From: a virus
Lineage: Duplodnaviria; Caudoviricetes
DNA: 64,000 nt
Virus record (IMG/VR): IMGVR_UViG_3300030330_006886
Span: 7,026 to 71,025 of that record
Strand: one strand, 5' to 3'
Positions 3,746 to 61,483 of this stretch are shown piece by piece (the first letter of the stretch is position 1; the number at the start of each line of letters is the position of its first letter). The notes below the pieces were generated by a model, which did no database searches, had not been told where the DNA came from, and was given only the letters and a program-made list of their open reading frames with translations. The translations under genes and the position numbers were made by a program.

Positions 3746-3751
3746 TTACAC
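3746..3751 (-). promoter_or_regulatory. GTGTAA motif (putative late promoter)
   Basis: AGTGTAATTAAATA, 15 nt upstream of ATG 3730. Confidence 0.6.
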
Positions 3752-3756
3752 TATAA

Positions 3757-4494
3757 TTAGTCAGTTAATCCGAATCTTGGTTTAATTTGAGATTCGTAAT
3801 TTTTTCTTATTTCTTTCTGTGTTAAAACTCTATTATAAATTCTAAATATAGCTATTTGTCCATTAAGATCCCTACTAGTGTCTGAAGTAGCACCCAGATA
3901 TAAACTTGATGTCGAGATATTAGCCGTGCCAGATGCACTACCAGTAGCACTAGTAAATACTTGAGCGTTCTTGTATATTTTAATTCTGTCTACGCTAGCA
4001 TTTCCGTCCCATGTTGCAACTACATGTACCCATTGGCCTGCTACGACAAAGCTTCCAGCACCAGCTTGAGTAAAAAGTGCTGAAGGGCTACTATTGTCAT
4101 ATATGTTTTGATAAATAGCAAATGGAGACGTTTGTGATAAATGCAATAAAGTGTTACCTTTTTGATAAATTCTTGGAAATGGGTTATTTTGAGAGGAATC
4201 GGCTTTAAAAACGGCTTCGACAGTAAATTCTGTGCTTTCCAACGCAGATTTCACCGCGGCATCTGAATTAGGTACTTCAATTTTATCATTACTTCCATCA
4301 AAATCAAAAAATTTTTTACCATTCGCGCCAGGGTCTGAGGAAAATGTCGCATTACTCAGTGTCCCAAAGTCACTTGTTGAAACTAAATTTTTAACAGTGG
4401 TGCCGCTACCAGAGTAACACCTTATAGCCTGAGCGTCAAAACATAAAACTAGTCCTTCTCTTGTTATGCTTGGTGAATGATTTAATACTGACAT
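3757..4494 (-). CDS. LamG/concanavalin A-like lectin domain protein
   Basis: FTVEAVF...WVHVVATWD...IKIYKN...LNGQIAIFRIYNRVLT pattern; N-terminal PSITREGLVLCFDA; C-terminal RFG. Confidence 0.85.
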   Translation of the reverse strand: MSVLNHSPSITREGLVLCFDAQAIRCYSGSGTTVKNLVSTSDFGTLSNATFSSDPGANGKKFFDFDGSNDKIEVPNSDAAVKSALESTEFTVEAVFKADSSQNNPFPRIYQKGNTLLHLSQTSPFAIYQNIYDNSSPSALFTQAGAGSFVVAGQWVHVVATWDGNASVDRIKIYKNAQVFTSATGSASGTANISTSSLYLGATSDTSRDLNGQIAIFRIYNRVLTQKEIRKNYESQIKPRFGLTD

Positions 4495-4518
4495 TTTGTT
4501 TTCTTGTTGTTGTTTTTA

Positions 4519-5763
4519 TTATTTTCCGAATCGACCTTTTTGGGCTATGTAGATGTCTTTTATTTCTTTGTCGGTTAAACACGAAGACCAAACAGACACA
4601 CAAGCAATTTCTCCATTAAAATACCTACTCAGATTAAGATAACCAATATGGCATGCGTCATTAAGTCCAGACGCCATAGTAACACCAGAATAAGTATGAG
4701 ATTCCACCTCAACACCATTTTTATAAATTTTTGACAAAGTGTCAGATCCTACAGTTTTTGAAGTTGCAACAGCATGAGTCCATACTCCTTGATCAGGACC
4801 ATTTGCTTCTGAGGTTTCAGCTCTACCATTAGTGAAATTTTTTTGAACAAATTGAAACTTATTCGCGCTAACGTTAAAATCTCTTCGGCCGCCGCTAGTA
4901 TTGTTATTAGTAACCATTCCCTGTAGACTCGAAAGACCACTATTACCCCCGTATTTAACCCAAACAGAAATCGTAACAAACTCAGAAGTCATAATTCCTG
5001 TTCCAGCATTTATATACTCATCAGTTCCATCAAAATCCCAATATGCGCCGCCTATGTGTCCTTGATTGATATTAAAAGAAGCTAAAACTTTACGATTTGT
5101 AGGCTTGAAAAGTTCTTGGCCGTATGCCGCAAAAGTCCCAGTTAGAGTAGTGCCCAGCGCACCAACTCCGCTAATATTTTTAACTGCATTTGACGCGGTG
5201 CGGGAAGTCGCCGTAAAAGGAGTTGAAGAAGTTTTTTGTTCTACCTGTATTCTTCTGATGTATTTATTGCCACTATAAGTTTCATTTGGCCTTAAATATC
5301 CATCATCCAATGTATACCCCGTTGTTATATTGTTAAATGTAAACCTTTTCCACTCTGTAGTAAGGTTGGCTGTTTGTGTAGTTCTTGTTGAAACACCTGA
5401 GTACAAAGCAAATTTTAAGACCTTGCCTTCGTCGTCAGCTTTTGCTTCAAAAGATATAGAAAATCCATCAGTAACAGTAGAAGTTAAATCAAGAAAATTT
5501 ACTCTAGGATAATCAGTGCCGCTGTTAGCGGTAGTATTAGATATTACAAGATGAGGTATTCCGTCTTCTGAGCCATACGATATAGTTCCAGCCGAACCAC
5601 CAGCCTGAGATATCGAAAAGTTACCAGCGGGTTCAGGGTCAGGGAAAACGTTTGTAGTAGGCTCGCCGCCATAACTATCAGAATTTGCTGCATCAATGCA
5701 AAACACCAACTGCTTAGAGCGGTCGCGTTGACTTACTGTTTTTGGTCCGATTTTTGTTGCCAT
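4519..5763 (-). CDS. LamG domain protein with inserted carbohydrate-binding-like module
   Basis: TISVWVK...WTHAVAT...IYKNG...FNGEIACVSVW; insert after GEPTTN containing ISFEAK and LTTEWKRFT (CBM-like); ends in RFGK. Confidence 0.8.
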   Translation of the reverse strand: MATKIGPKTVSQRDRSKQLVFCIDAANSDSYGGEPTTNVFPDPEPAGNFSISQAGGSAGTISYGSEDGIPHLVISNTTANSGTDYPRVNFLDLTSTVTDGFSISFEAKADDEGKVLKFALYSGVSTRTTQTANLTTEWKRFTFNNITTGYTLDDGYLRPNETYSGNKYIRRIQVEQKTSSTPFTATSRTASNAVKNISGVGALGTTLTGTFAAYGQELFKPTNRKVLASFNINQGHIGGAYWDFDGTDEYINAGTGIMTSEFVTISVWVKYGGNSGLSSLQGMVTNNNTSGGRRDFNVSANKFQFVQKNFTNGRAETSEANGPDQGVWTHAVATSKTVGSDTLSKIYKNGVEVESHTYSGVTMASGLNDACHIGYLNLSRYFNGEIACVSVWSSCLTDKEIKDIYIAQKGRFGK

Positions 5764-5771
5764 TGTGTTTT

Positions 5772-6530
5772 TTAAAATGATGATTCAGGACATAGCTTAT
5801 CTAAATATCTTCCAACATGGGCTAAAAAGTTTTGTTTTACTTCTGCTGCGGTTAAAACTTTATTGTATAAATATATTGGACCCATTTTACCATCCCAGTG
5901 AGTTGCGTATGTATAACGTGTGCCAATTCTAGCATTAATACCAAAATTTTCAGTTGCAGAAGTTGAATACGCAGCCGTTCTTTCTCTACCGTTTAAATAT
6001 ATTTTAGTACCAGAACTATTACTGGTTATCATCAAGTGAACCCACACGTTTGTAGGAAAGTCGCCCTGACTATAAGATCCTCCGCCAAAATTATACCGCA
6101 GTGTATTGTGAATATTAATGTTGTAACTACTGTAATTAGTTAACCACCAGCTTCCTCCATCGTTTCTGAAATCAAAAAGATAATCAGTGTTGGTGCTAGT
6201 TTTAAAAAACCACATTCCCGCAGTGCACTCGCTATTTGATCCAAGATCTTCATCAATATTTATTCCGTCACTACCGTCAAAGCCAAAAACATAACTACTA
6301 CTATTAGTGGATTGATCTTTTGCAATTGTTGGAAAATTACTTGTACTCTCAGTATGCGCTCCAGTTCCAGGATTACCGCTTGCGCCTGAGCATCTTTTAC
6401 TTCCAACTAAGTCGTGAGCACTAGTGTTGCCAGGTTGTACACATCTATTGTTGTGAGGATCAAGTAAAAAAACCAAACCTCTTGTTGTTAATTTTGGACT
6501 GTATCTTGTTGCCATTTTATGCCTTTCCAA
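5772..6530 (-). CDS. LamG domain protein
   Basis: YSPKLTTRGLVFLLD; WVHLMIT...IYLNG...WDGKMGPIYLYNKVLT. True start may be the second Met at 6515. Confidence 0.8.
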   Translation of the reverse strand: MERHKMATRYSPKLTTRGLVFLLDPHNNRCVQPGNTSAHDLVGSKRCSGASGNPGTGAHTESTSNFPTIAKDQSTNSSSYVFGFDGSDGINIDEDLGSNSECTAGMWFFKTSTNTDYLFDFRNDGGSWWLTNYSSYNINIHNTLRYNFGGGSYSQGDFPTNVWVHLMITSNSSGTKIYLNGRERTAAYSTSATENFGINARIGTRYTYATHWDGKMGPIYLYNKVLTAAEVKQNFLAHVGRYLDKLCPESSF

Positions 6531-8685
6531 ATCTGTTTTTAAAGTAGTTGTAAGCTTGAGTTACTTGATCTTGTGACAATGTGATATCGTAAACCATACC
6601 TGTTGCTATTTTTCCATCAAAGTAATATGATTCACCAGAAGAATTTCCAAGTTGAAAGTTGGCACTTGTATTTGTCCAATCTGCGTTTGTATTTTGTTGC
6701 GACGCAACTTGCACACCATCTAAATAAACCAAAGCAATTTTTGTACTTGCATCGTAAGTTGCTATTGCGCAATACCATGTCCCAGCGCTTAAAACGTTTC
6801 CTGAGGCTGCGATCAAATTATTTTCATCTAATCTAAAACTCAGTGTGGCATTATTATGAGCTAGCCTATAATTTCCATATGTTTTACCAATTAAATGTTT
6901 GAACCCAGAAATAGCATCTGGCTTAAACCATACCAATAATGAAAAATTATCATCATGCGCAAACTGTGTATGACTTGTATTTCCAAAATTAATATAATCA
7001 TTTGTACCATCAAAATCATAATGCTTTGGAAGATTGCTTACGTTTGTTGACGCCTGAGATGCACCTTCTACTGTACCATCAATTTCATTTGGCCCTAAAT
7101 CAAAGAATGTTGACGAATCGTATGTTCTGTCGCGAGCGGGACCAGAGGCATCTACATAAAGTACAACATTTTTTGGTGCAGGTATTTTTGGTATTGCGTT
7201 TATGCGTGATTTTGTTGCATTGTAGTTTTGCATTATTTCTCCGTGTGTTAAAGCTTTTTGGTATAAACGCAAAAATGCAAGTTCTCCTACAAAGCATTGC
7301 GAACTTTGTGCTAAAAATTGCATATTGTTTGAAGTAGCTGTTATGCCTTCAAAGTTGCCAGTGTTTCTAAATATTTCGGCTCCATTCTTGTACCAAGTCC
7401 ATGTGCTTCCGCCATCATAAACTCCGTGCCAATGAGCCCATTCTCCAGCAACAGTTCTGTGCTCTACGGCCACTAAAGAATCGTCATAAGTACTAGTTCC
7501 GCCGCTATGATTTTCTCTAAAATATGGTCTACCATAACTACTTCCAGCATATCTTAAAACAAAACCATTACTTTGGTAAGTTTCATTGGCAATAAGAGCA
7601 TAATTTGTTCCGCCAGTGCGACCACTATCAGCTTGACAACATATCATTGCCGCGGCCCACTCTATTGTGTAGCCTCCGTTTGCGTTTAGGTCTGAAATTT
7701 TGCTGTTTGTTGTGTAAGTTATTGATCTTCCAGCTTGATTTCCTATGATTATTCCTCTGTTTGAATTTACAGCTGGAAAAAGATAATCAATGCTAGAGGT
7801 ACTTGGTTTCGCGTTTTCTGTTGAGTCTCTTGCGCCTCTGCTTAAACCGCCACCAGTAGATAATTGTAATGGTATATCCCATTTGTGAGATAAATAAAAT
7901 TCCATTTGGTGTCTTTCTTCGTCCGTAAGTGTTGACTGAAAGACCATTACCTCAAATATTTCAACATTAGAGTTCCTTTCGTGAGCGTAATCAGCTCCAA
8001 GAACAATGCCTTTATGGGCGGTTGCCGCACTTAAAACATCACTAGATCCGCCAACTCGCAATCCGTTGTTCCATAAATATCCAGCATCTGCAAACCTAGC
8101 GCAAACAATATGAGGATCCAAACCATTTAAATCGCCATCAGTACCAGTAGTAGCTGCGTTGTGTCCTGCATACCAAGTCATACCAGTGCTTGAGGAATCG
8201 TGCCTGAGTAATCTTCTTGCATCTGCGTCACTGTCTGTATCTCCATCAAATATATATTTAGTATTATCTGATGAATTAGTAGATAACGCCCTAAAAACGA
8301 TAATAACATCATTAGCCGCATTGTCTGCAACATAATTATTAGAATGAAACGGTGCAAGCAATTCATTATTACTTCCATCAAAGCTAATTCCACCAAGGCC
8401 ATTGAGAGATTTTTTGTTGTAAGTTGGCCTATGATTGGAAGTATCAGCATCTGTCGCGTTACTTGCTCCGCCAAATTCTGCCGCGCTGCTTTTATCTAGC
8501 CAATCTGTTACTGCATTTGAAGAATGAATAATGGTTGACTCATCCGCAGCATCCAACCACATTATGCACCTTGCCGACAGACTGTTCGGAGATACATATT
8601 TGTTAGCGCCCTTGCCTCCACCATTTCCGTCGAAGTTTAAAGCGAGTTGGTCGGTAACTATTCGCGGTTTTAAATGCTGAGCCAT
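6517..8685 (-). CDS. Multi-LamG domain protein (about 722 aa)
   Basis: Three lectin-like folds (MWLDAAD...MEFYLSHKW; WAHWHGVYDG; WYCAIATYD). Start placed at MAQHLKPRIVT (8685), 1 nt after the upstream stop, rather than the track's 8724. Confidence 0.8.
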   Translation of the reverse strand: MAQHLKPRIVTDQLALNFDGNGGGKGANKYVSPNSLSARCIMWLDAADESTIIHSSNAVTDWLDKSSAAEFGGASNATDADTSNHRPTYNKKSLNGLGGISFDGSNNELLAPFHSNNYVADNAANDVIIVFRALSTNSSDNTKYIFDGDTDSDADARRLLRHDSSSTGMTWYAGHNAATTGTDGDLNGLDPHIVCARFADAGYLWNNGLRVGGSSDVLSAATAHKGIVLGADYAHERNSNVEIFEVMVFQSTLTDEERHQMEFYLSHKWDIPLQLSTGGGLSRGARDSTENAKPSTSSIDYLFPAVNSNRGIIIGNQAGRSITYTTNSKISDLNANGGYTIEWAAAMICCQADSGRTGGTNYALIANETYQSNGFVLRYAGSSYGRPYFRENHSGGTSTYDDSLVAVEHRTVAGEWAHWHGVYDGGSTWTWYKNGAEIFRNTGNFEGITATSNNMQFLAQSSQCFVGELAFLRLYQKALTHGEIMQNYNATKSRINAIPKIPAPKNVVLYVDASGPARDRTYDSSTFFDLGPNEIDGTVEGASQASTNVSNLPKHYDFDGTNDYINFGNTSHTQFAHDDNFSLLVWFKPDAISGFKHLIGKTYGNYRLAHNNATLSFRLDENNLIAASGNVLSAGTWYCAIATYDASTKIALVYLDGVQVASQQNTNADWTNTSANFQLGNSSGESYYFDGKIATGMVYDITLSQDQVTQAYNYFKNRFGKA

Positions 8686-8686
8686 A

Positions 8687-9184: not shown

Positions 9185-9218
9185 ACTATTATTTTTTTAT
9201 TTTTTTTAAAATTTTCTA

Positions 9219-11682: not shown

Positions 11683-14600
11683 TTTCTCCGTCCTTATTTA
11701 CACTTTTATCTGGTTCTATTTCTAGCTTGCCGATATCTTTTCTTTCTGCATGTACCAAATAAAAGCAGTTGATTTTATTTTCTTTGTTGTTGTTTATTAA
11801 AATTTTGTTGTCTTTGATTGACTCGACGTATAATTCTTGGTGTTCGCCTATTGGTGTAAGTTGAACACTGATACTATCTTCGTGTACTAAGTATGGCCAA
11901 TGATCTGGTAATTCAATTATTTTGCTTTGTGCTTTTCCGCGAACAAAGACGTTGTGTTCTGGAGTTTCTGATGATGCGTATGCAAGTTGTTTGTCTGGTT
12001 TGGCAGGATCTGGATGATCAATAATAAAACTCTTATAGTCTGCTGCAAGACCACCGCTTACTGTGACTGTGTATGAAGCACTTGGGCTGTTGGTGCCAAA
12101 TCCAACAAGGTTATTACCAGCGTCGACGAAAATCATATTGTCTTGACCAGCTGTGCCTGCAACACGGAAATTTAAATCCTCTTTTTGGTGTCCAACAACA
12201 AGCTCTGAAGATGTTATTCTAATTCCTTCTTTTTCGCCACCTTTTATAAAGGTTCTGGAATCACCAAAATAAATAGACTCATGAAGGCCACCACCATCAG
12301 CCTGTATTCCAGCATAAGTTCCATCATTATATACTTTAAGCCTTGTTTGAGAAGCTCCGCCGAATATTGCATCAACAGCTCTTAGTTCTCCTGTTACGCT
12401 AGCGTCTCCACTAACAACAAGAGCGGAACCTTTTGCATTATTTGGATCAATGTTTATTCCAACAGCAGGCAATCCAGCATCTACAACAAAAGCATAATCT
12501 TGACCAGCAACTTCAGTATTTACATAAAAGTTTACGTCAGCAGTACTAGAAGCTAAACCACCAACCGCAACATAATCAGTGCCCACCTCTCTGAGCTCAA
12601 GCAAATTAACATCACCAGCTTTTAAATAAATTAAATCATTAGAAAATTCTAAAAATGTATTTGAGTCGCCTAGGTGACGAATTTTATCACCAACATAAAT
12701 ATCTGTTGCAAACTCTCCCTCACCAGCTACGTTTAAATCTCCAGCTGTTCGAAGTTCTCCTGTTATACTGGTATCACCATTAACCGCCAACATAGAACCA
12801 CCAAAGCTGGCCACTCCAATTCCAACTCCATAGTTGTTAAAAACAGTTCTTCCATCATCTTTAAATCTTGCAAGATCTAAAAACGAGCCATCTCCTTTTT
12901 GATGCCAAACTACCAAACCTCCATCCATACTTGAAGATATTTCATCTCCAAAATTAGTTTCGTCGGAGCCAAAGCTTATATTCCACTCTCCATCGATATT
13001 AGTTCTGCCACCTCCACCATTATGACGAAGTTTTAAATTTGCGGCAACGTTTGCTCCTGCGCCTTGAATATACAAGCTTCCTGCACTTGAACCACCATGC
13101 ACTTGTAATAATCCACTTGGATTTGTTGTTCCTATGCCGACATTACCATCCACAAATGTAACGGCATCAGTATTAGTACCAGCAATTTTATAACGCAACC
13201 TTATTTCTCCATCATTACTATCATGATAGATCATCTTCATTCCCGCAAAATAAGTACCAGCACCATCATTAGCAAACACTCTTCCTAACTCTGTTCCGTC
13301 TGTAACACTGCCATCATTTCTCAGCTCTATCTCTGCTCTAGTTGATGGGTTTGCAATGATTACATTATCATTTGTTCTTAGTTCTCCTGTTATACTGGTA
13401 TCACCACTAACGGTAAAAGTAGCTTGTGGACGGCCATTAATTCCTTGATGAAAGTTTCCAACCATCATCTGGCCTTCTCTGTTTATCATGGCAAATTCAT
13501 CAGTTTGGGTTGCTCCGTATCCGCCAAAAATAAGAGCGCCATTGGCGTCGTGAGTAGAACTACCATCGTATTCTATTCTAAAATGGTTATCTGTGGTACT
13601 ATTTTCAGCAAATTTAATTACAGCACTAGGATCTTGATCTGTTGAAGCGGCTTCAAATCTTAAAGCTGCTCCGTTTCCGTAAATTTCTAATTTTTCGCCT
13701 GGATTTGTTGTTCCTATTCCAACATTTTGTCGAGATATTGTTGCAGTAGGCGAAACAGTAAAGTTTACTGCGCCATTGGTCATTAACTCAATATTATTGT
13801 TATTTTGATTTACAATATAAAAATGAGACGGCGAACCTTGTATATAAGCTTCCCTTGTACTTATATCAGAGTGCCATGAAATAAATGGGCTAGTATCGGA
13901 TTGACGTAATAATTTGATAGATTCAGAAGTTTGCCCTCCTCCAACAACTAGTTGTCCTGTTATACTAGCGTCACCACTAACAACAAGCGCGGAGCCTTTA
14001 GCATCCAAGGGATCGCAGTTAATCCCCACGGTAGAAGTCCCAGCGTCTACTTCAACAACGTAGTCTATACCGTTTACCGCGCTACCAACCAAGAAGTTTA
14101 CATCTGGATTATCACCTACTCCTCCAATCGCAACATAATCTGTGCCAGCTTCTCGCGCATCGATTAACTCTACGCCGCCAGCATTAAATTTTATTCTGTT
14201 AGATGTAAAAGCAATATCAGTATCAGTATCACCTGCATGAATCAACTGCTCAGATATATAAACGTCTCGAGCAACAACATCTACGTCTGTGGTTATTTGT
14301 CCCGCAACTTTTAGCGCTCCTGTTACATTAGTGCTGCCATCAACTAAATTAATAAAAAATCTTTCTTGCCAAGAACTTGAATAGTTGGCCCAAATACTAA
14401 AACGATCATTGTCATATAAACTCCATGCTGCGCTACTATTATTTTCGTACCACTCCACTTGAGCATTATCAGAAGTTGGGTCACCAATTACTACATCAGA
14501 AAAACTACCTCGCGAATTAGCGGGCGCAACCCCGCCCAGCCCAACTCTTCCATCTGTTCGAAGTTCTCCTGTTATACTAGCGTCACCATTAACTGTAAGA

Positions 14601-22543: not shown

Positions 22544-22544
22544 T

Positions 22545-25500
22545 TTAGTAGTATATTAAATCCAAATTTCCATTCGAGTCTATAGAGTATACTGCAACAT
22601 CTACTTCGCCCGAATAATTTCCTATGTTTACACTTACTGAAGTATCAACAACTTCAGAATTAGCATCTTTTGCATCTTTTTCTAGCACTATCTTTTTGCC
22701 AGATGAAGTTGAGCCCGAACCTTGGCCTTGTAAAGTTATTACAATTTTATATTTATCTGGAGTTACAGGTATTGGCTCCCACGATACACTTAATTCTCTT
22801 TCCAAACCTCCATTTAAAGAAGTTATTGAAATTCTGGGCACGCCGATTGGCTTGGCAGGTCTAGAATAAGTCAAAGGACTTTTTGAATAATTTATATTGA
22901 GTTTTCTGTTGATTTTGTTGTCAGACAAATCATATTTTGATTCAATATACCTAACTCCCTGAACTTCATATTCTAAATCATTTGTTTGACCAACATTAAC
23001 AACCTTAAATGTGTCTTCTTGAATTTTGACGTCGGTACCTTTTTGATTTAATATAAAAATTGATCCAATATTAATTTTTCCAAAATCATCTAAGGAACTA
23101 CCATTTACTTCCTCTAACTCCACTATTCTATTTTCATGCGGTACAATAGATTTGTCTGCGGTAATACTTTTTATTTTAAATTCTTCTACTTGCGATTTTC
23201 GTATATTTGATATTTCTTCATCAGTCACAGTTTTTTGCTTAATCGAGCCTTCATCTGTGATGGTAATTTTATCTACCTTTCTGTTCAAAGCGTCAGAAAA
23301 TTCAAAATCTTGTATAATTGTGATAAAAATACTTTCGCCAACATAATCTTCTGACAAGTTTAAGTCAACTTTTATTTTCTGTTCTCCAGAAACAAAATCA
23401 ACAACTCTTCCGCCAAACCTTTTCTGGGTCCTAGTCTTGTCTATTACCTTAAATACATCTCCAGGCCTTAAATACGCGCATTCTTTGCCTCCAGAAAATT
23501 CTACAGTTTCTGTTTCGTACTGAGCTGAAAATAAAAACCAACGACCTAGTCTTCGCGCTTGAGATCTTGAAGCGCAGCCAAATGCTACTAAATCTTTTTC
23601 TATAATACCATATTTAACAATTCCATCTGGGTCTTCAACATATTCTATTTTAGGTTTATAATTTTCATATTTATCTACATATCTTACAATGCATGTTGTG
23701 AACCTATCAGATCTAGATGAACCAGAATAACTAAAATTACCATCTTTAACGTTTGCGTTTGTAAAGTTTAATATTGCATCACGTTTTTTATCAAAATGTG
23801 CGAATATTTTACCGTTCGCAAAATATGTGATACCTCTAAATATAGAAGCTACGTCATTTAATATTTTATACGCATCTACTTGAGTAGTAATATATAGATT
23901 AGCAGAAAACCTTGGCTCAAGAATATCAAAGTTTCCATAAAATTCTGTTGCCGCAAGACCAGAAGCAGAAGTGCTATTTATTTTCTGCCTAACGTCAAAA
24001 TTTTGAGTAATCAAAGAATTTTTATTTGCAGGATCGTCCATAAATTGCAATATTAACTGAGTATCTGTTGCATTCTTTTCAAAAAAGTTTGCATTAACAT
24101 TTTGTTTTTTAGACCTCAACAAATCAGATATTCCTGGTTGTATTCTTAAGCACTCTTCTGGAGAAATTAGTTTATGCAATTCTATTATTGCCGAACCAGC
24201 AGAATTTTCATCACTTCCTCTGTAGCTTCTTAATTTATTTGGATTAGAAGTAGAATATCTTTCATTTGTTTGTACAAGCGCCGAACTACCACTACCAGTT
24301 TTTTCTCTTGAATACTTTCTTAAATATTTTATTCTTCTATGAACGGGTTCTTTTTCATCATTTAAATCGTACAGTGCTATTGTTGAATACTCTGGAAATT
24401 CTTTTTCAAATTCCGCTTGATTTAAGAATCCATCAATTTGTATCCTAGAGCTGCCATGTTTTGGATTGCTACTTACCGTAAATTTTTTAGGCTTGTATTT
24501 TGGATCTAAACCAGTTTTAACTTTTTCATCACAATATTTAGCTATTTCATATAAATTCCATTTATCAATAGATTCGGCATTCAAACCAAATTTGCCCATG
24601 CCATACCTTTTGTTTGTCACTAAATCGTAAAATATCCACGCAGGGTTATCGGTCCACTGTAGTTCAGCAGAGTCAAATTCTGCATTTTCATCAAATCTAA
24701 ATGATTCATCAACTATTGCTTCTGCAAAATCAAATATGTCTGTAGAATTATTATCTCTGTCGTCGCCTTTTATATAAAATTGTGTTGTAAAATCGTTTTT
24801 TATTAAATCTCTTAAATTATCTGGATTAACGCCAGTGCCTCCTCTTGGATGCGCTTTGGTATTAAATGATTCTATGTATTTTGCTTTTTTGGAAACTACA
24901 ATTTCATCCATATAACCATTAAAACTCGTAGCATAAACTTTATTATCTTTTGACACATATGGAGTTTTTGTGCCACCGATTTGTATTTCTCCTCTAGTTG
25001 CATTTTCTCCCGACAAATATTTAAAGCCAAAAATAGGCCTTTTATCAATAGTAATTGAAGCTTCTCTAGTTCCGTCAACGAACATGTACATATCATCTCC
25101 GTTTCTTACAACCGCAATATGATGCCAAGCATCGTCGGCAATATTTGTAGTGCTCGTTATATCAGCTTGTAGTTGCAGTTTAAGATCAGAAAATTCTGGA
25201 ACCAGATTCGACGTAGTTCCCGAGCTGCTATTAAAAGTTTGAAAACTAATACCTCCAACAGGACTAAATGCTCGAAACCTAACTTTTCCTAAATCAGTAA
25301 AATCAGGATCAGAACTATTCTTAGTTCCTACCTCAATTCTCCAGGAGCCGCCAAAAAGATTAGCAAAAGTACTGTGAACACTATCTCTTTGCAATTCTTT
25401 TTGAATTTGATCTGATATTACAGTCATTTCGGCTAGACCAGGGATTCCACCATTTCCATCCCAATTAATTGAACTATTTTCTTCTGAAGCAATTAGCACC

Positions 25501-28030: not shown

Positions 28031-28036
28031 TTACAC
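28031..28036 (-). promoter_or_regulatory. GTGTAA motif
   Basis: TAGTGTAATAATAC, overlapping the K stop, 20 nt upstream of ATG 28010. Confidence 0.6.
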
Positions 28037-34240: not shown

Positions 34241-35013
34241 TACTGAAAAACTTGCCTAACCGATATTACACCATTTAAATAGTTTTGCGCAGAAACTGTA
34301 AGATTTTGGCTTACAATCTGGCCACTGCATCTTAACTTTTCCAAAGTATGATTTGAATTCATGTCTAGCATATGGCAAGTAATTTCCGCATGATTTCCAG
34401 AGACAGCTAGTACGTCTCCAATATTGTCTCCACGTATGGTCATGTTTACTTCAACTCCTTGTTTTGTTACTCTTGTAGGAGTTGTTTCTCCTGCTAAATA
34501 TATTGGCATTCTTTGTGCAGATACAGAATAAGAAACAGATAATGTATTGTTAATGTTTGATGGCGTACCTACAACAAAAGATCTGATACCGTGCGCATAT
34601 TTGTTTGTCCAATTGCTTAAACTTGTTGGATTGCTAAAATTAGAAGATATGTTACTTGTTAATGCGCTGTAAAAGTCCATATTAGAAGATATCATTACTG
34701 GTGAATATGGTTCTACATCTAAACTAAATGATGTTGTGTAAGCATCGGAAAATCCCAATCCGCCAAAGCTTCCGTTGCGTGTATCGGCTTCATTAATTCC
34801 AGTGATATCAAGATATGTTGGTAATGCTCCAGTCATATAATATTCAAATGACATTTGACCCTTCAGACCATTTGTCGGCGCATACCTTTCTATTTCTCCA
34901 TATATGTTTCTTGATTCTGATAATGAAGCTTCAACATTAATAGATGCCGTATCAGCAAAGATATCGTCATTACCTACTTTTACTAAAACATCTTCGTATT
35001 TTAAAAATGCCAT
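34240..35013 (-). CDS. Tube-like tail protein (possible baseplate tube ring)
   Basis: All-beta pattern; segments YTTSFSLDV and LSVSYSVSAQRMPIY resemble the tube paralogues; positioned between the tape measure and Dit. Confidence 0.5.
   Translation of the reverse strand: MAFLKYEDVLVKVGNDDIFADTASINVEASLSESRNIYGEIERYAPTNGLKGQMSFEYYMTGALPTYLDITGINEADTRNGSFGGLGFSDAYTTSFSLDVEPYSPVMISSNMDFYSALTSNISSNFSNPTSLSNWTNKYAHGIRSFVVGTPSNINNTLSVSYSVSAQRMPIYLAGETTPTRVTKQGVEVNMTIRGDNIGDVLAVSGNHAEITCHMLDMNSNHTLEKLRCSGQIVSQNLTVSAQNYLNGVISVRQVFQ
34266..34271 (-). promoter_or_regulatory. GTGTAA motif embedded in coding sequence
   Basis: GGTGTAATATC, 25 nt upstream of ATG 34240. Confidence 0.45.
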
Positions 35014-42253: not shown

Positions 42254-42259
42254 TTACAC
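42254..42259 (-). promoter_or_regulatory. GTGTAA motif
   Basis: TGTGTAATTGCATATAAGG, 24 nt upstream of the tape measure ATG 42229. Confidence 0.6.
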
Positions 42260-44358: not shown

Positions 44359-44385
44359 TTACACAAAAAACAATAAAAAGTGTAA
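44359..44385. promoter_or_regulatory. Back-to-back divergent GTGTAA motifs
   Basis: Minus copy 44359-44364 faces ATG 44332; plus copy 44380-44385 faces ATG 44394. Confidence 0.7.
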
Positions 44386-46340: not shown

Positions 46341-46346
46341 GTGTAA
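46341..46346 (+). promoter_or_regulatory. GTGTAA motif
   Basis: Directly after the stop at 46340, upstream of the major tail gene, followed by an inverted repeat. Confidence 0.55.
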
Positions 46347-47712: not shown

Positions 47713-47742
47713 TTACACCACAGTCTTTTGATTGTGGTGTAA
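47713..47742. promoter_or_regulatory. Hairpin whose right arm is the GTGTAA motif
   Basis: TTACACCACA-GTCTTTTGAT-TGTGGTGTAA; plus-strand GTGTAA at 47737-47742, 12 nt before ATG 47755. Confidence 0.65.
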
Positions 47743-49934: not shown

Positions 49935-49940
49935 TTACAC
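49935..49940 (-). promoter_or_regulatory. GTGTAA motif
   Basis: AGTGTAATAAG, downstream of the capsid terminator, 40 nt upstream of ATG 49894. Confidence 0.65.
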
Positions 49941-49961: not shown

Positions 49962-49992
49962 TAAAAAACCCGCCCCCAAATGGAGCGGGTTA
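49962..49992 (-). terminator. Rho-independent terminator after the major capsid gene
   Basis: Minus strand AACCCGCTCC-ATTTG-GGGGCGGGTT followed by TTTTAT, about 20 nt after the stop. Confidence 0.85.
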
Positions 49993-50012: not shown

Positions 50013-51167
50013 TTACAGATCGATTGCAACACCAACAATAGCTCTGTCGTCGAGGACCACGCGACCCTCTTCAATAGAACCATAGTAGCCAATCTTCTGC
50101 TGACGCACACTGTACTGATCATCAGCAACTAAGCTGAACTCAGAACCAGTCTCACTGTCAACTGCGATTGCGCGAACAAAAGCATCGCGGCTACGATCAA
50201 TACCGATAACCAAGTCATCAGCATCACCATGATCGAAGGCGCTGTCGCCACCGTTCGGGTTATTATCCATCTGAGCAGAACCAGCCAAACCAGCGAAGAT
50301 CTTAGTGAACTTCTTGTTTGGACCGAGCTCGTGAATTTCCATTACGCTTACGCCGTAGAACTCAGGAATACCAGCGCTAGTATACATGCCAGCACGCACT
50401 GAATCTGGTGCAGCAAGACCCTGGGCAGTGCCAGAAGAAGCTGTACCATCTTGTTCGCGTGTATTAATTGGGTTATAGGCCATTTCACGAAGATCCTCAA
50501 CAGTCTCAGGAGAAACGATAAGATCCGTGATACCAGCGCTACCAGCCACAGGAGTTCCGCCAGCAAACGAAGGACGAATTCTCTTGGCTAAGGTTAACAA
50601 GGCGTTAAGATCATCCAACAAGAAGCGGCCAGCCTGGTTGCTAGCAAATGTATGCTTCTTAGTTGAACCATCAATAGTGGTAGAAGCGTTTGCTAATGCA
50701 CCCAATAACAAGTTACCAGAAGTTCTCTCCTGCTTCAGAAGAATTTCCTGGGCAGCACGAGTGAAACTTTTGCTAACTACGTCCATTCTCGAACGAGAAG
50801 CATATTTCTTATCAAAAGAAACTGCAGTGTCGAGCTTGTAAGTAGCCAACTTCACTTCGTTATGAGAAGGAGTAACTTGGTTGGTGGGAAGACCACCTGG
50901 AGCGTGCGAGCTGTAAACGTTAATGTAGTCTTCGTCAGCTACATCGTAATAAACATCCAAGGGGATGCTGGGGTTGTCATCAGCATTAAACTGAAGCGGG
51001 GTGAACAAGTTGCTCAAAGTAGGAGCGTTGTTAACCACTTCGTTAATCACTGGGCCGATAAACTCGGCCAAAGCAACCTGAGCTTCGTAAGCAACATCTC
51101 TGTTCTTAGAGGCCATTGCCTGAACTAACTCAAGCTGTTCATTTGTTCTTTTTAAGGTAATATTCAT
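50013..51167 (-). CDS. Major capsid protein
   Basis: 384 aa; follows portal, protease and decoration-like genes; AAAGGAAAT RBS; terminator downstream; visibly C-ending codons; QKIGYYGSIEEGRVVLDDRAIVGV C-terminus typical of the HK97 fold. Confidence 0.8.
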   Translation of the reverse strand: MNITLKRTNEQLELVQAMASKNRDVAYEAQVALAEFIGPVINEVVNNAPTLSNLFTPLQFNADDNPSIPLDVYYDVADEDYINVYSSHAPGGLPTNQVTPSHNEVKLATYKLDTAVSFDKKYASRSRMDVVSKSFTRAAQEILLKQERTSGNLLLGALANASTTIDGSTKKHTFASNQAGRFLLDDLNALLTLAKRIRPSFAGGTPVAGSAGITDLIVSPETVEDLREMAYNPINTREQDGTASSGTAQGLAAPDSVRAGMYTSAGIPEFYGVSVMEIHELGPNKKFTKIFAGLAGSAQMDNNPNGGDSAFDHGDADDLVIGIDRSRDAFVRAIAVDSETGSEFSLVADDQYSVRQQKIGYYGSIEEGRVVLDDRAIVGVAIDL

Positions 51168-53568: not shown

Positions 53569-53574
53569 TTACAC
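53569..53574 (-). promoter_or_regulatory. GTGTAA motif
   Basis: TGTGTAACAGG, 30 nt upstream of the protease ATG 53538. Confidence 0.6.
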
Positions 53575-55586: not shown

Positions 55587-55595
55587 TTGTTTTAG

Positions 55596-55601
55596 TTACA
55601 C
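55596..55601 (-). promoter_or_regulatory. GTGTAA motif
   Basis: CGTGTAACTAAAAC, 9 nt upstream of the portal ATG 55586. Confidence 0.6.
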
Positions 55602-55615
55602 GAAAGTTATGAATG

Positions 55616-55633
55616 TTAACTTTTAAAAGTTAA
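55616..55633. repeat. Perfect 18 bp palindrome TTAACTTTTAAAAGTTAA
   Basis: Read directly in the terminase-portal intergenic gap; flanked by further AAAGTTA copies. Confidence 0.8.
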
Positions 55634-55644
55634 AAAAGTTACTT

Positions 55645-57516
55645 TTAGTTTATAAACATGGGAGTAAAAGTAGATTGAACAGACTCTTGTTTAAAGTTCA
55701 TCATATCAAAATACGTTTTTACCATCCAGTTGCCTAATACTAAAGCTGAATAGCTATCTTTTCTAGCTTTATCTCTGCCAGATTGCCTTTTTAGATTAGG
55801 CGGAAGGTCAAAAGTTTGCGTGCCTTGGGAAGTTGTGGTTATTTGTATAAGTGCGCATTCTACTTTTGTTAAATCAATTATGTCTGTTTGATGTTCAATA
55901 AAATCAATCATTTTTGCTTCTCTACCCATTTTTTCGTTATCGCCAGCACGCAGATATTTTAATGTATCAATTGGTATATGTTTTCTTTTTTGATTTTGAT
56001 ATGAGTCGTCAATAGCTCTTGACGCAAAAAATATTCTTTTATGATCAAAATTAGATTGCAATAACTCGTTAGCCTGTCTGATCCAATTGCTTGTAGGTTT
56101 TCTTAAATAGCAAATCTTTTTTTCTTTTATGTTATAAGAATTTCTAGCATTTTGTAAATCTTGTCTGTAACTTTCAGAATGCTCAAATGGAACATCAATA
56201 ATTCCTAAATTTATTTTATCCTTCTTAAATGTTTCACTTTCATTGCATGCGCTTAAAAACTGTACGCCACCAGCATAGTCACCTACTACCATTACAATAT
56301 TAAAGTTGGTAAGCAGATAATGAAAATATCTAATGTGATCTTTCATGTTTGCACCAGATAGCGCATAACTATGAACCACGGTGCCAACTTGTTTTTCTTT
56401 ATTTAATTTTAAAACTTGTATTGCAAAATCATCAGAGCTTTCACTTTCTGCCCAGCTTGGGTCAAAAGCCAATAAATATTCTGCTCCAGGCTCACCAGCA
56501 ACTTCTACAGAAGGATCTTCTCCGTCTGGTATGGTACAGTCTGCCATTTTTGATATTTTAAAATATCCGCTACTATCGTCTGTAAACTTTGCGCCAAACT
56601 CGCGATCAAACTGAGATTCACTCATAGTTGCTTTTGCTTGGTTGATTAAGTTTTGATCGTACAACTGTTTAGGGGCACAGTCGTATGAAAATTGCATAAT
56701 TGTTCTATGAGCGGTGTCTTTCGAATTTTGATTAAAAATTAAGTTTTCAAATTGACTGTATAATTTATACATATACTCAAATTTGTAAGACGCAGAAGAA
56801 AGTGCTATAAGTTTGTTGTTTGGCCAAACATATCTTTCTTCTTCGGTCATTTTCCCCTGCTTGATTAAATCTGTTTCAAGGTTGTATAAATCTTCACGTT
56901 GTGTTGGATTTTCCACGACAGATAAAAACGGTACAATCACCTCGTTGTAAATTCTTTCTGGCATGAGCAAAAATTCGTCAATAATTATTCTATGAAAACG
57001 AAAACCGCGCAGCTTCTCACCATCACCTAATGGTAACGCTCTTATTCTTGAACTACCAATTTCTAACAACCATTCGTCATTACTTTTGCTTTTCTTTGTT
57101 ATGCACTGAGCGAACAAAGCCGCTTCAGGTTTTGCCGCAATATCTTCTATTTTCTTGAAGATCATTTTTGCCTGTCTGAACGATTTAGAAAGTATTCCTA
57201 TTTCAACGCCTTGATTAAGCGTCGCATCAAGCGCGGCAAATATAGCGGTTGTAAAAGACTTTGACATACCACGAGACCACACGCCCATAAAATAATCTGT
57301 TTCAAACATAGCCTTCACGGACATATGCTGAAACGGAAAAAGTTTTATACCCATCAGTAAGTCTGCTGCAAAAGTTGTATTTTCTCGCAAGAACTTATAC
57401 AGTAAAAGCTTGGCTTCTTTTTCTTCTAAGAAACCAAGATCACCTTCAAGAAGCTCTTTGTTTATATCGCGGGTTTTGCTGAGTCTTCTTTTTTGATTGC
57501 CTTCTTGCCAAGCCAT
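55645..57516 (-). CDS. terL: Terminase large subunit
   Basis: LFPFQ adenine motif, WSRGMSKS Walker A variant, LRGFRFHRIIIDE Walker B, RNase H-like LLAFDPS...RKDSYSAL. Confidence 0.92.
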   Translation of the reverse strand: MAWQEGNQKRRLSKTRDINKELLEGDLGFLEEKEAKLLLYKFLRENTTFAADLLMGIKLFPFQHMSVKAMFETDYFMGVWSRGMSKSFTTAIFAALDATLNQGVEIGILSKSFRQAKMIFKKIEDIAAKPEAALFAQCITKKSKSNDEWLLEIGSSRIRALPLGDGEKLRGFRFHRIIIDEFLLMPERIYNEVIVPFLSVVENPTQREDLYNLETDLIKQGKMTEEERYVWPNNKLIALSSASYKFEYMYKLYSQFENLIFNQNSKDTAHRTIMQFSYDCAPKQLYDQNLINQAKATMSESQFDREFGAKFTDDSSGYFKISKMADCTIPDGEDPSVEVAGEPGAEYLLAFDPSWAESESSDDFAIQVLKLNKEKQVGTVVHSYALSGANMKDHIRYFHYLLTNFNIVMVVGDYAGGVQFLSACNESETFKKDKINLGIIDVPFEHSESYRQDLQNARNSYNIKEKKICYLRKPTSNWIRQANELLQSNFDHKRIFFASRAIDDSYQNQKRKHIPIDTLKYLRAGDNEKMGREAKMIDFIEHQTDIIDLTKVECALIQITTTSQGTQTFDLPPNLKRQSGRDKARKDSYSALVLGNWMVKTYFDMMNFKQESVQSTFTPMFIN

Positions 57517-58432: not shown

Positions 58433-59474
58433 CGTCTTTTCTCACTCCTAAAACTCTTGATTTCCATTCGCCCATGGACTCAAGTTCGTCCGCCTCTTTG
58501 CGAACAACCTTCTTTTGCATTTCTGCCATCTTAACCATAATGCCACGCTCTTGTTCTTCTTGAAAAAGTTGAACAATATTTAAAATGCTAGCGTTCTGCT
58601 GATTCCTAGATGCGACGCGTTTTGCACGATCACCATTTAACTTAGTGATCAACTTGTCCATGCGTGATGCACATTGATTATATTCTTCGCTTTTGGTTTT
58701 TAAAATCTCTGTTAGACGAATTGTAAATTCTTGTTGATCTTGGGCGTCATCAAACATCATGTTTAACTTAGCTTTTTGTTGTTCAATGTGTTTTAAATTT
58801 ATATAATCCATACACACATTGATATATAAATTAATTTCGTCAGATGTTAAATCTGGCTTATCCCAAACGCATCTTACAAACTCTGCCTCAAATAATTCTC
58901 TGTCTTCTTGTGAGCCGTAGTTGTTAATTACTTGTAAAAATCTAGGGCTTGATAAAAAGTTCATTAAGCTCTCTGCAGCTTTTCTGTCTTGCATTTGCAG
59001 TTTGTTTTCATCAAGATCTTTACCTGCAAAGTCATTTATCTTTTTGATTGACCTTGACAAAGCTTTTGGCGGACTGTATCTCGTGCCCACAGCACTTTCT
59101 TCCGATTTTACAAAATCTGGGTGATGGTTCTTAATGTAGTCTGCTACGACTCTTTGCTCTTTTGATAGCTTTTTGATTTCTTTATTTGGCCACAACAACT
59201 CTGCCAGTTGTATGCTTGACATATCTTGACCAGCATGTGAATTTAAAAATTCTTTTTCTTCATCTGTTAAAATTATTTCCTCAACCTTTGAATGTTTAGA
59301 AGTTTGATAGTTCAAACCTTGATCAACCATGAACTTTCTGATAGAACGTCCAATTTTGCTTCTACCATCAATGGTATCGTCACCCGATACTATTTGCGTT
59401 AGCCGTGTTAAGTCTGGTATAGATTTGTAATTTTCTGCAATTAACTTTTTTTGCTCGTCAGTTAATTCACTCAT
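58422..59474 (-). CDS. Hypothetical helical protein (possible small terminase or regulator)
   Basis: Two LTDE(Q/E)K repeats with HTH-like segments; C-terminal coiled coil; two genes upstream of terL. Confidence 0.4.
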   Translation of the reverse strand: MSELTDEQKKLIAENYKSIPDLTRLTQIVSGDDTIDGRSKIGRSIRKFMVDQGLNYQTSKHSKVEEIILTDEEKEFLNSHAGQDMSSIQLAELLWPNKEIKKLSKEQRVVADYIKNHHPDFVKSEESAVGTRYSPPKALSRSIKKINDFAGKDLDENKLQMQDRKAAESLMNFLSSPRFLQVINNYGSQEDRELFEAEFVRCVWDKPDLTSDEINLYINVCMDYINLKHIEQQKAKLNMMFDDAQDQQEFTIRLTEILKTKSEEYNQCASRMDKLITKLNGDRAKRVASRNQQNASILNIVQLFQEEQERGIMVKMAEMQKKVVRKEADELESMGEWKSRVLGVRKDDVI

Positions 59475-60183
59475 TTGTTATTATAATATCTTTTTCCTTA
59501 ATAATCAAAATAGCTTTTTCTTTAAACATTTTTTTTAAGTTTTTGATTTGCTTGTATCCAGCTTTTCTGTTTTTTTCATTAGTGGTATAACCAAGATCTT
59601 TTGCAACTTCATCTTCTGGTAAATTTTTAATAAATAAGTCTTCGTAAACTTTGTAATGTTTTGTATTCAATACCATCTTCATTTCAATGTGTAGTTTTTT
59701 TATAGAGTCGCCAAAATTAAACTCTGTTGTTGAAATAGAAAATACTTCTTGTTGATGATTTTCAAGTGCTAGTGGTAACTTTATATCATACGCATGTTTT
59801 TTACTTTTTTCCCATTTAGCATATAGCTTGCATTCAGAGCATTGTTTTTTACTTGGTGTGAACGAGCAACTGTTTTCTCCGCCGCCTTCTTCTTCTGATT
59901 CATTGAATGGACAGTTTAAACATGGTCGCGCAAAATTACTATAATGATTTCTTAAAATATTTTTAAGTTGATTAGAAATAATTTTGTTAACCCATGGCTC
60001 AAGATTTCTTGACTGATCCCATTGATCCCACTTTTTAAAAATATGAAATCTTATGATTTGCTCAACGTCTTCGAAGTCAAACCATGCAAGTGCATTTAAA
60101 TGCCACTTGTGTTTTCTTTTTTGAAGCTCTGCGTCAATAATTTCGACTTTGTCTTCGTACTTGTATTTCTTTTTACGAGGCAT
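59467..60183 (-). CDS. ECF-like RNA polymerase sigma factor with Cys-rich insertion
   Basis: Region 2-like DFEDVEQIIRFHIFKKWDQWDQSRNLEPWVNKIISNQLKNILRN; region 4 HTH YEDLFIKNLPEDEVAKDLGY; CLNC...C...CSEC between them. Confidence 0.75.
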   Translation of the reverse strand: MPRKKKYKYEDKVEIIDAELQKRKHKWHLNALAWFDFEDVEQIIRFHIFKKWDQWDQSRNLEPWVNKIISNQLKNILRNHYSNFARPCLNCPFNESEEEGGGENSCSFTPSKKQCSECKLYAKWEKSKKHAYDIKLPLALENHQQEVFSISTTEFNFGDSIKKLHIEMKMVLNTKHYKVYEDLFIKNLPEDEVAKDLGYTTNEKNRKAGYKQIKNLKKMFKEKAILIIKEKDIIITNE

Positions 60184-60572
60184 TAATCATCTAAAGGTCT
60201 GTTACGAGCACTTTGACACTCTCTCATAGTTTCGGCTTCAATTTCTTCTCGAGTCATTCTTTTTGAAGCTTGACTAGTGTTTGAGATCCTCGTACCTTCA
60301 GATGAAGATTGTTTTGAATTTATAAGTTGACCAATAGTCGTTTTGTTATTAGCGCCAACATCAACAGAGTATTCTAATTTTGAAATATTTGGAATGTCTG
60401 TTGGTTCTTCTAAATTAGCTTGTGCTGATTGCAGGTGAGGTGCGTTTGTGGTTCGTGGTTCGTTGCCTGCTGTCGCCTGGTTCAGTGATTGCCCACAACC
60501 AGCACAAAATTTTGCTTCGTTTAAAGTGTAAACGTTTTTAAAACCACATTGTGTACAGTATCTAAATGGCAT
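60183..60572 (-). CDS. Zinc-ribbon protein
   Basis: CTQCG-x10-CAGCG at the N-terminus; low-complexity remainder. Confidence 0.75.
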   Translation of the reverse strand: MPFRYCTQCGFKNVYTLNEAKFCAGCGQSLNQATAGNEPRTTNAPHLQSAQANLEEPTDIPNISKLEYSVDVGANNKTTIGQLINSKQSSSEGTRISNTSQASKRMTREEIEAETMRECQSARNRPLDD

Positions 60573-60602
60573 ATTTTATTTTATATATTTTTTAAAATAT
60601 TT

Positions 60603-61427
60603 CTAACTTGAACGTTTAGTGTTTACACTTTTATTTTGTCTTGTGGCTCTTTTTTTAGCTGAAGCAGGAGTTTCTTGTAGTTTTTCGAGCTTACCAACAA
60701 TAAATTTAAGTATTTCGCTTCTTACAATATCCTCCTTGTAAAAGTCAAAACAATATATGCCTTTTTCGTTAGATTCTTTATCATTAAAAAGATTTGATAT
60801 AGTTTTAAATCCGCTTTTACCATTAATGTCACTTTGCATAGGATCACCGCAAATAAATAATTTACTATTTTCTCCTAGTCTTGTTATTAAGGTGGTTAGC
60901 TCTTTTGCGGTAAAGTTTTGAGATTCATCTGCAATAATAATTTTATTAATCCAGTTTGAGCCACGCAAGTAATTTATGGGCATAGCATTTATGATTTTCT
61001 TTTGTTCTAAAAAGTTTCTTTCTTGTGAAGCTATCATTTCTTCAAGCTTATCATTTAGTGGCATCATAAAAGGATTAAACTTTTCATTAACGTCTCCTGG
61101 AAGCGAGCCCAAACCTTTTTCGCCACTCTCAGCAATAGTACGAACATACATAATATCATAATCGTTGTTAATATTGAAGAGTTGAAGTGCAGTATATACA
61201 GCCAAATAAGTTTTGCTTGTTCCAGCGGGACCGCGTACAAACATCATTTTCGTATCTTTAGCAATCGATAATTTTAAAAATTGTTTTTGTTTTTCAGTAA
61301 ACTTTACTGGGTTTAATTTTATTTTTTTCTTTTTCAAAGAAGACATGCAATCTATTATGTTGTTTTCGTCAGTTTCGCAAATAACGTCAGCATTAGACAC
61401 CGCCTTGATAGCAGATTTTCTAGCCAT
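60603..61427 (-). CDS. phoH: PhoH-family ATPase
   Basis: GPAGTSKT, LGSLPGD..EKFNPF, YLRG, IIADESQN, LITRLGENSK..ICGDPMQSD, DIVRSE. Confidence 0.95.
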   Translation of the reverse strand: MARKSAIKAVSNADVICETDENNIIDCMSSLKKKKIKLNPVKFTEKQKQFLKLSIAKDTKMMFVRGPAGTSKTYLAVYTALQLFNINNDYDIMYVRTIAESGEKGLGSLPGDVNEKFNPFMMPLNDKLEEMIASQERNFLEQKKIINAMPINYLRGSNWINKIIIADESQNFTAKELTTLITRLGENSKLFICGDPMQSDINGKSGFKTISNLFNDKESNEKGIYCFDFYKEDIVRSEILKFIVGKLEKLQETPASAKKRATRQNKSVNTKRSS

Positions 61428-61477
61428 TGTTTTATAAAAATTTTAGTGCTTAGTTTTGGTGTTATCACCATAATATA

Positions 61478-61483
61478 TTACAC
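61478..61483 (-). promoter_or_regulatory. GTGTAA motif
   Basis: AGTGTAATATATTA, 50 nt upstream of the phoH ATG 61427. Confidence 0.55.

Follow-up and report, generated by a model that had tools for sequence, protein, structure and literature searches.

GTGTAA as the putative core element of a post-early promoter class in large uncultured aquatic phages

The virion gene block and its GTGTAA boxes

The window analysed here is a stretch of 64,000 nucleotides (nt) from an uncultured aquatic phage, corresponding to bases 7026-71025 of the single 71,025-bp IMG/VR record IMGVR_UViG_3300030330_006886 (CheckV completeness 48%), and the element under study is the hexamer GTGTAA, hereafter the box, which precedes many of its genes in the sense orientation. 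Family searches showed that the window contains the virion and packaging half of a siphovirus-like phage genome. The block comprises two giant fibres, tail-tip genes resembling lambda J/I/K/L/M, a 2107-amino-acid (aa) tape measure, tube-like paralogues, a capsid-like gene (50013-51167), TerL (55645-57516), an ERCC4 nuclease, a PhoH-like ATPase and a 238-aa sigma-like protein rich in cysteine (Table 1). The same searches found no replication or early genes in the window, so that the question of early versus late use of the box could be answered only in relatives.

A preliminary description of this DNA had listed 13 GTGTAA copies in front of gene starts and had read them as a probable late-promoter regulon. 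All 13 are real, and each has the stated distance and the orientation of the gene that follows it. A fourteenth was located upstream of ATG 60572, a start that had been listed as lacking the motif, and one further copy is an uncertain candidate. The statement that the box occupies most of the larger gaps holds otherwise, as it is present in 10 of the 13 intergenic gaps of at least 25 nt. Over the whole window the hexamer occurs at chance frequency (33 copies against 34.7 +/- 5.9 expected); the preliminary description had called the bare hexamer common in AT-rich DNA. The gene caller scored 39 starts in the 71-kb contig, and the 60-nt segments upstream of them contain 12 copies against 0.53 expected (P 6e-13), which places GTGTAA first among 4096 hexamers. 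Dinucleotide shuffles of the upstream segments confirmed the proposed enrichment by position and strand: 13 sense copies were counted where 0.82 were expected, none of 1000 shuffles gave more than 4, and three of the 4 antisense copies are accounted for by the divergent pair and the hairpin described below. The most enriched upstream hexamers of the contig are GTGTAA, AGTGTA and TGTAAT and not the T4 late consensus TATAAATA, in agreement with the earlier view that the two consensuses differ.

The arrangement of the boxes noted in the preliminary description was likewise recovered. Two of them stand back to back at the divergent junction, 15 nt apart inside a 61-nt gap, a spacing which leaves no space for other promoters upstream of either box. 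Where no gap exists the box lies within coding sequence (for example 11698-11703 and 34266-34271), and a further box restarts about 20 nt after the terminator of the capsid-like gene. The operon behind ATG 60572 consists of a zinc-ribbon gene, the Cys-rich sigma gene, a 350-aa gene, the ERCC4 nuclease and TerL.

Table 1. Position of the GTGTAA boxes and associated features in the window (distances are from box to start codon)
Feature	Position	Strand	Remarks
GTGTAA box	3746-3751	-	15 nt before ATG 3730 (giant fibre gene, 2722 aa in full contig); C-A step at box +13/+14
GTGTAA box	11698-11703	-	15 nt before ATG 11682; within 3' end of 3623-aa fibre gene
Uncertain extra copy (15th candidate)	22628-22633	-	84 nt before ATG 22543; within coding sequence; poor flanks, score -1.6
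GTGTAA box	28031-28036	-	20 nt before ATG 28010 (tail assembly I-like gene)
GTGTAA box	34266-34271	-	25 nt before ATG 34240 (1460-aa tail protein); within preceding coding sequence
GTGTAA box	42254-42259	-	24 nt before ATG 42229 (tape measure gene)
GTGTAA box	44359-44364	-	26 nt before ATG 44332; half of divergent pair; best flank score
GTGTAA box	44380-44385	+	8 nt before ATG 44394; other half of divergent pair; leaderless message predicted
GTGTAA box	46341-46346	+	105 nt before ATG 46452 (tube-like gene); directly 3' of preceding stop codon; least certain function
13-bp hairpin (TTACACCACAG...TTGTGGTGTAA) then TTTTAT	47713-47742	+	3' arm is GTGTAA box 47737-47742, 12 nt before ATG 47755
GTGTAA box	49935-49940	-	40 nt before ATG 49894; ~20 nt past capsid-gene terminator; same layout in 20 relatives
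Intrinsic terminator after capsid-like gene	49967-49991	-	10-bp stem, 7 G-C pairs, T run
GTGTAA box	53569-53574	-	30 nt before ATG 53538 (538-aa head-module gene)
GTGTAA box	55596-55601	-	9 nt before ATG 55586 (668-aa gene after TerL); leaderless or nearly leaderless message predicted; AACTTT repeats precede box
Cys-rich sigma-70-family protein	59467-60183	-	predicted sigma2 and sigma4 domains, Cys-rich linker; box regulon member, less likely candidate reader
GTGTAA box (14th site)	60623-60628	-	50 nt before ATG 60572; within 3' end of PhoH-like gene
GTGTAA box	61478-61483	-	50 nt before ATG 61427 (PhoH-like gene)

Two of these sites show additional features. The hairpin at 47713-47742, between two tube-like genes, has a perfect 10-bp core in which the inverted box pair is extended by CACA/TGTG, and it may combine the roles of terminator and promoter. 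The box between TerL and the 668-aa gene is immediately preceded by three to four AACTTT(T) repeats (window 55602-55644; AAGTAACTTTTTTAACTTTTAAAAGTTAAC...AACTTTC), which recur at the orthologous position in many relatives; in near relatives only one upstream hexamer is more enriched than AACTTT (24 copies, 3.4 expected), and the repeats may form a regulator-binding or DNA-bending array. Separately, the antisense form of the box (TTACAC on the coding strand) occurs 13 times in the coding regions of the whole contig against 22.7 under synonymous shuffling, a value as low being reached in 1.3% of shuffles.

Conservation, geometry and gene partition in relatives

Relatives were collected by searching IMG/VR with the capsid and sigma proteins, giving a set of 132 loci. 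Among deposited phage genomes megablast of 44-56 kb found no close relative, and tblastn returned matches of at most 26% identity for TerL and none for the sigma protein. The search for a host through prophages gave a single match, a 211-kb contig binned as Cellvibrionales, which is probably the phage itself because its size agrees with that of phage genomes.

The box is conserved as GTGTA(A/T) across hundreds of environmental relatives, and the group which carries it consists of large siphovirus-like aquatic phages. The motif search in relatives put GTGTAA or GTGTAT at or near the top of the upstream hexamers in three sets: those with a capsid identity of 78-80% (27 copies against 1.1 expected), those at 57-62%, and the loci retrieved with the sigma gene. 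In 20 relatives the capsid gene is followed by the same succession of terminator hairpin, about 20 nt, and then GTGTA(A/T/C) within surrounding sequence that has diverged, with compensatory changes in the terminator stem; on the sequence comparison, this layout is a phylogenetic footprint. The family consensus can be written as wwwGTGTA[A/T] with T/A-rich flanks. A chance or compositional artefact of AT-rich intergenic DNA would fit the total count in the window, which equals expectation, and the absence of avoidance inside genes. When tested, however, this explanation was rejected and retains practically no probability in view of the local dinucleotide shuffles, the strand bias, and the conservation of the box down to 57% capsid identity and in phages whose structural genes are unrelated.

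In order to define the geometry of the element, 252 non-redundant sites were compiled, among which 98 long-leader sites have a leader of at least 15 nt. The information profile of the 252 sites contains GTGTA(A/T) and its T/A-rich flanks and no conserved -35 partner, as had been noticed from the window by eye; a weak TTCT signal at -20 was discarded as such a partner, since it could be traced to a single set of promoters orthologous to one another. Most frequently the ATG follows the box after 8-10 nt (118/252 sites), with a hard lower edge below which almost no site falls. In the long-leader sites, where the ATG cannot contribute to the signal, a pyrimidine-purine step is found in 55% (vs about 20%) and TA in 44% (vs about 15%), with peaks solely at box +13/+14, the position taken by the A of the ATG in the N8 class. 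The step is present at 10 of the 14 window sites. We infer that it corresponds to the transcription start, 8 nt past the box, which would place the box at about -14 to -9. In G005, a near-identical relative, the early promoters have the form TATAAT-N7-ATG, and on that calibration TGTAAW aligns with TATAAT; an alternative register with the TA of the box at -12/-11 is possible. With the start 8 nt past the box, the messages beginning at ATG 44394 and ATG 55586 would be leaderless or nearly so, and the other predicted leaders of the window measure about 4-97 nt, most of them with AAGG-type ribosome sites.

The partition between early and virion genes was examined in two relatives. G005 is 97% identical to the contig over 15 kb and runs 51 kb past its right end, giving a composite of about 122 kb. 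In its early region host-type promoters (TTGACW-N15-19-TRnnnT) precede 17 of 60 open reading frames (ORFs) and the box 2 of 60; in its virion region the TTGAC type precedes 0 of 29 ORFs and the box 12 of 29 (early versus virion, Fisher P 6e-7). The complete 180-kb relative G002 shows the same partition, with about 90 early-type genes which lack the box and have TTGACA promoters instead. The earlier reading of a phage-specific promoter class that spares early genes is thus supported in part, but the label 'late' is too narrow: one box of G002 precedes the large subunit of ribonucleotide reductase, and because of it the class is better described as post-early (middle plus late). Within the contig itself the host sigma-70 class was not detected, TTGACA being found upstream once against 0.66 expected, and matches to the consensus sigma-70-type promoter in 42-62 kb are at chance (70 vs 61 +/- 9.5). 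G005 also carries a GTGTAT box 25 nt before a gene for an 835-aa tube-like FG-GAP protein. The ATG of that gene forms the last three bases of the contig (window 63998-64000), and in G005 it is preceded by a divergent gap of 60 nt, in which boxes point in both directions.

The early regions of these relatives deserve a separate description. Between 12.9 and 38.4 kb G005 (L148-L149) contains about 20 textbook early promoters of the form TTGAC-N17-(TG)nTATAAT, with the ATG 7 or 10 nt past the -10 hexamer, so that the early messages are also predicted to be leaderless or nearly so; this hints that the host translates leaderless mRNA efficiently. In G002 (L135, 1-23 kb; L143, 167-180 kb) two early -10 flavours occur, TTGACA-N17-TGGTAAGGT and TTGCAA/TTGACA-N16-17-TATGCGAAA, the second having G instead of T at the first hexamer position; the promoters of this second flavour might constitute a separate class.

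The geometry and the partition together bear on two alternatives in which the box would not itself be a promoter core. One, already considered in the preliminary description, is a function at the RNA level: the box might assist translation or ribosome loading, mark a processing site or belong to a regulatory hairpin. The modal spacing of 8-10 nt in relatives does resemble that of a Shine-Dalgarno sequence, and one copy forms a hairpin arm; however, the window spacing runs from 8 to 105 nt, with only 3 of the 14 boxes at 8-12 nt from the ATG and the others at 15-105 nt, and the long-leader genes have AAGG-type sites of their own near the ATG. In a generic comparison the box shows no complementarity to CCUCC, the core of the 16S rRNA 3' end. 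Early genes that are also leaderless (TATAAT-N7-ATG) lack the box, which therefore is no general translation signal, the divergent pair would require promoters within the opposite genes, and a pyrimidine-purine peak at a fixed offset is a feature of transcription starts. We consider an action in RNA very improbable.

The other alternative is that the box is the site of a phage activator or co-factor which redirects the host sigma-70 holoenzyme to weak AT-rich -10 sequences adjoining it. Late activators working with the host polymerase are found in many phages (P2 Ogr, Mu C), the A/T-rich flanks fit such a role, and the post-capsid promoter of distant relatives has TATAAT or TAAAAT starting 7-8 nt past the box. 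Against this, of 86 long-leader sites no more than 18 have TAnnnT at the expected offset past the box, the majority of these being orthologues of a single promoter, and in the N8-10 class a downstream -10 element would put the start inside the gene. The co-occurrence of two phage sigma families with the box and the chance-level frequency of sigma-70-type matches in 42-62 kb also speak against an activator site, which we regard as rather improbable, if less so than a role in RNA.

Two sigma families and the reader of the box

The explanation that we favour, with a probability of roughly 0.7, is that GTGTAA constitutes the single core element of a phage-specific post-early promoter, used by the host RNA polymerase core together with a phage sigma factor, most probably a protein family that we call sigma-II. 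A phage-encoded factor of the sigma-70 family on the host core would bind the box at about -14 to -9 without needing a -35 element, and transcription would start about 8 nt further on. The fourteen promoters of the window would then drive tail-fibre, tail, tape-measure, tube, head and packaging genes together with the operon that includes the Cys-rich sigma. Sigma-II, itself located behind host-type TTGAC/TATAAT promoters in relatives, would stand in the middle of a cascade leading from host sigma-70 through sigma-II to the GTGTAA genes.

Two candidate sigma families accompany the box. The Cys-rich sigma of the window matches Pfam Sigma70_r2 with 21.9-24 bits, at or just below the 24-bit cut-off, and all 21 members of its family match this domain with E <=0.01 (best 1.4e-6), Pfam r4_2 being matched by 2/21 only. 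Residues 2-81 of its structure model resemble the sigma2 domains of extracytoplasmic function (ECF) sigmas (N-terminal domains of SigE and SigR; Z 7.0-7.2, root-mean-square deviation (rmsd) 2.9-3.0 A, 75-76 residues aligned), and residues 153-235 resemble region 4 of SigA (Z 7.5, rmsd 2.1 A, 66/70 residues) as well as the -35-binding domains of SigD and SigL, where Z values of 7-8 are middling for helical folds. The models thus identify the protein as a genuine two-domain member of the sigma-70 family with a Cys-rich linker; its sequence profile gave no match among PDB sequences. Sigma-II is a second family of about 200 aa with a QGCINIH motif. Its model has a predicted local distance difference test (pLDDT) score of 85 and sigma factors as all of its top fold matches; its sequence profile matches FliA, SigA and RpoD at about 1e-5 and, among the 60 matches listed, cellular sigma factors only. 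At least 420 IMG/VR loci carry sigma-II; among their upstream hexamers GTGTAA ranks first, with 120 copies and 12 expected.

The Cys-rich sigma, whose gene lies inside the regulon, had been put forward as the reader, and this obvious guess is corrected here. Three genomes that are 93-100% complete (G008, G010, G011) contain sigma-II together with a box of the same N8-10 geometry; an exhaustive profile search in all six frames found no homologue of the Cys-rich sigma in them, and homologues of the TerL and capsid genes of this phage are also absent. In G002 the Cys-rich sigma and sigma-II are the only sigmas. Sigma-II is thus the sole factor common to all box-bearing genomes. Furthermore, the first recognisable promoter upstream of sigma-II operons is of the sigma-70 type in 56 of 77 loci and the box in 4, while upstream of Cys-rich sigma operons it is the box in 11 of 19 loci and the sigma-70 type in one. 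As the own operon of the Cys-rich sigma is box-driven (in the window from 60623) and box regulons exist without it, this protein is disfavoured as reader and more likely represents a target of the box promoters. That the Cys-rich sigma nevertheless reads the same promoter, with positive feedback on its own operon after a weak AT-rich host-type -10 start before the zinc-ribbon gene, we consider unlikely, although it is the strongest of the competing explanations. In every capsid relative examined its gene lies mid-regulon beside the packaging genes, no other sigma could be detected in the about 122 kb available for this lineage, and in several relatives the zinc-ribbon gene has AT-rich -10-like sequences in front of it. 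Self-activation also has a precedent in phage phiEco32, where gp36 is a middle gene product and the middle promoters depend on gp36 (PMC8948821). An invariant box is, however, explained more easily by the conserved sigma-II than by a factor which is replaced in other lineages.

Sigma-II was not seen in the contig or in the composite with G005. It very probably lies just off the contig, about 3 kb beyond its left end, as suggested by the relative L227, which is 79.5% identical to contig bases 40-1156 and has sigma-II (L227:9971-10573) 2.7 kb to the left of that stretch. The idea, drawn from the composite, that this lineage has only the Cys-rich sigma was dropped, because L227 has sigma-II beside the homologue of the contig's left end. 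Extension of the contig to the left through a 371-aa gene (contig 1467-2582) yielded no relatives.

Two small genes were recorded close to the candidate sigmas. A 129-aa zinc-ribbon-like gene (window 60183-60572) shares 1 nt with the start of the Cys-rich sigma gene, all relatives examined have a gene of 108-139 aa at this position, and the zinc-ribbon product may be a partner or an anti-sigma for the Cys-rich protein. To the left of the window, contig bases 758-1153 (L152:758-1150) encode a 131-aa protein that weakly matches a transcriptional regulator in PHROG (E 4e-5); its gene lies about 3 kb downstream of sigma-II in L227, L191, L221, L181, L211 and L185, the synteny being conserved.

Several observations weigh against a sigma-II promoter. 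The sense strand inside genes does not avoid the box (10 copies against 8.7 expected under synonymous-codon shuffling), and six sense copies lie deep within genes. The bare hexamer is thus insufficient for function, and flanking context or another factor must supply specificity; the functional copies have T/A-rich flanks. Two sites are atypical, namely 46341 with its 105-nt gap to the ATG and 47737 inside a hairpin stem, and many of the 252 sites are orthologous, so that the positional statistics overstate the number of independent cases. Regarding the reader, G008, G010 and G011 encode a third, ECF-like sigma which could functionally replace the Cys-rich one, the common-factor argument is one of comparative parsimony and no proof, and the absence of sigma-II from the assembled sequence leaves its placement in this phage dependent on synteny in one relative of about 80% identity. 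Finally, the lack of a conserved -35 element contrasts with the presence of a sigma4 domain in both candidate sigmas.

More tentatively, and in our estimate possible rather than probable, the box may form the middle tier of a conserved sigma cascade in uncultured phages from aquatic habitats, a very large clade with hundreds of IMG/VR contigs and genomes of 125-211 kb. The cascade would run from sigma-70 through sigma-II and GTGTAW to a lineage-specific sigma and the virion genes. In such a cascade host sigma-70 would transcribe the leaderless early genes including sigma-II, and the Cys-rich, probably zinc-binding sigma, with the zinc-ribbon protein, would control a third promoter class or another late function. 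The box itself provides a practical rule for reading the transcription of these widespread marine and freshwater phages, in which GTGTAW marks post-early units and TTGAC-N17-TATAAT early ones; since both promoter types often start at the ATG, the rule should improve the annotation of operons and start codons. The box and its sigma are in addition a candidate for a compact orthogonal sigma/promoter pair.

Comparison with known promoter systems

The late promoters of T4 consist of TATAAATA at -10 and are read by gp55 with gp33 and the gp45 clamp, gp55 being a truncated sigma which has the region-2 equivalent only and depends on the sliding clamp. The box would share with them a late promoter confined to the -10 region and a phage sigma-like protein on the host core polymerase. 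In contrast to T4, the consensus is not TATAAATA, both sigmas found here are predicted to have two domains and no link to replication is evident, so that T4 is a looser analogue than phiEco32.

The extended -10 promoter (TGnTATAAT), which the early genes of this same group use, is similar in having a TG-containing element beside an A/T-rich stretch and no dependence on a -35 element, and the distance to leaderless ATGs is the same in TATAAT-N7-ATG (early) and TGTAAW-N7-ATG (box). It differs in that the essential A at -11 becomes G in the TGTAAW register, while in the other register TG abuts TA without a spacer base; moreover, TTGACA is present at the early promoters and absent from the box promoters. 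In Salmonella phage 7-11 the sigma gp47 reads bipartite late promoters, GTAAtg-N16-aCTA (PMC8948821). As proposed for the box, a phage sigma acts there on late promoters, and the upstream element GTAAtg overlaps GTGTAA in sequence. A bipartite reading of this kind was rejected for the box, as nothing is conserved 16 nt downstream of it; together with an ATG that often stands 8 nt past the box, this means that the box cannot be a -35 element.

The closest known case, in our analysis, is that of the gp36 promoters of phiEco32. At the middle and late promoters of that phage gp36, with the help of gp79, recognises one element only, given as tAATGTAtA or as AATGTA with its centre at -11.5 (-14 to -9), and transcription begins 6-8 bp further on; the early genes use host sigma-70 promoters, and gp36 has sigma2-like and sigma4-like domains (PMC8948821; PMC12276001). 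Both systems have a single element in the -10 region with no required -35 consensus, early genes with host sigma-70 promoters (here in the relatives) and a phage-encoded factor of the sigma-70 family with sigma2 and sigma4-like domains. The TGTA core is shared as well, and the position of the box proposed above agrees within 1 nt. Unlike phiEco32, a coliphage podovirus, the phages described here are large, siphovirus-like and aquatic and encode two or three sigmas per genome. No similarity to gp36 was detectable in the profile matches listed for either sigma family, the gp36 chains (9M7Y) being possibly outside the library. An invariant G precedes TGTA where phiEco32 has AA, and wwwGTGTAW does not match tAATGTAtA; this mismatch suggests a promoter which works like the phiEco32 type and does not belong to the same promoter family. 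No description of GTGTAA or GTGTAT as a phage promoter was found in the literature searched. The proposed control through one box and a phage sigma would be of a known kind, with GTGTAA as a new consensus.

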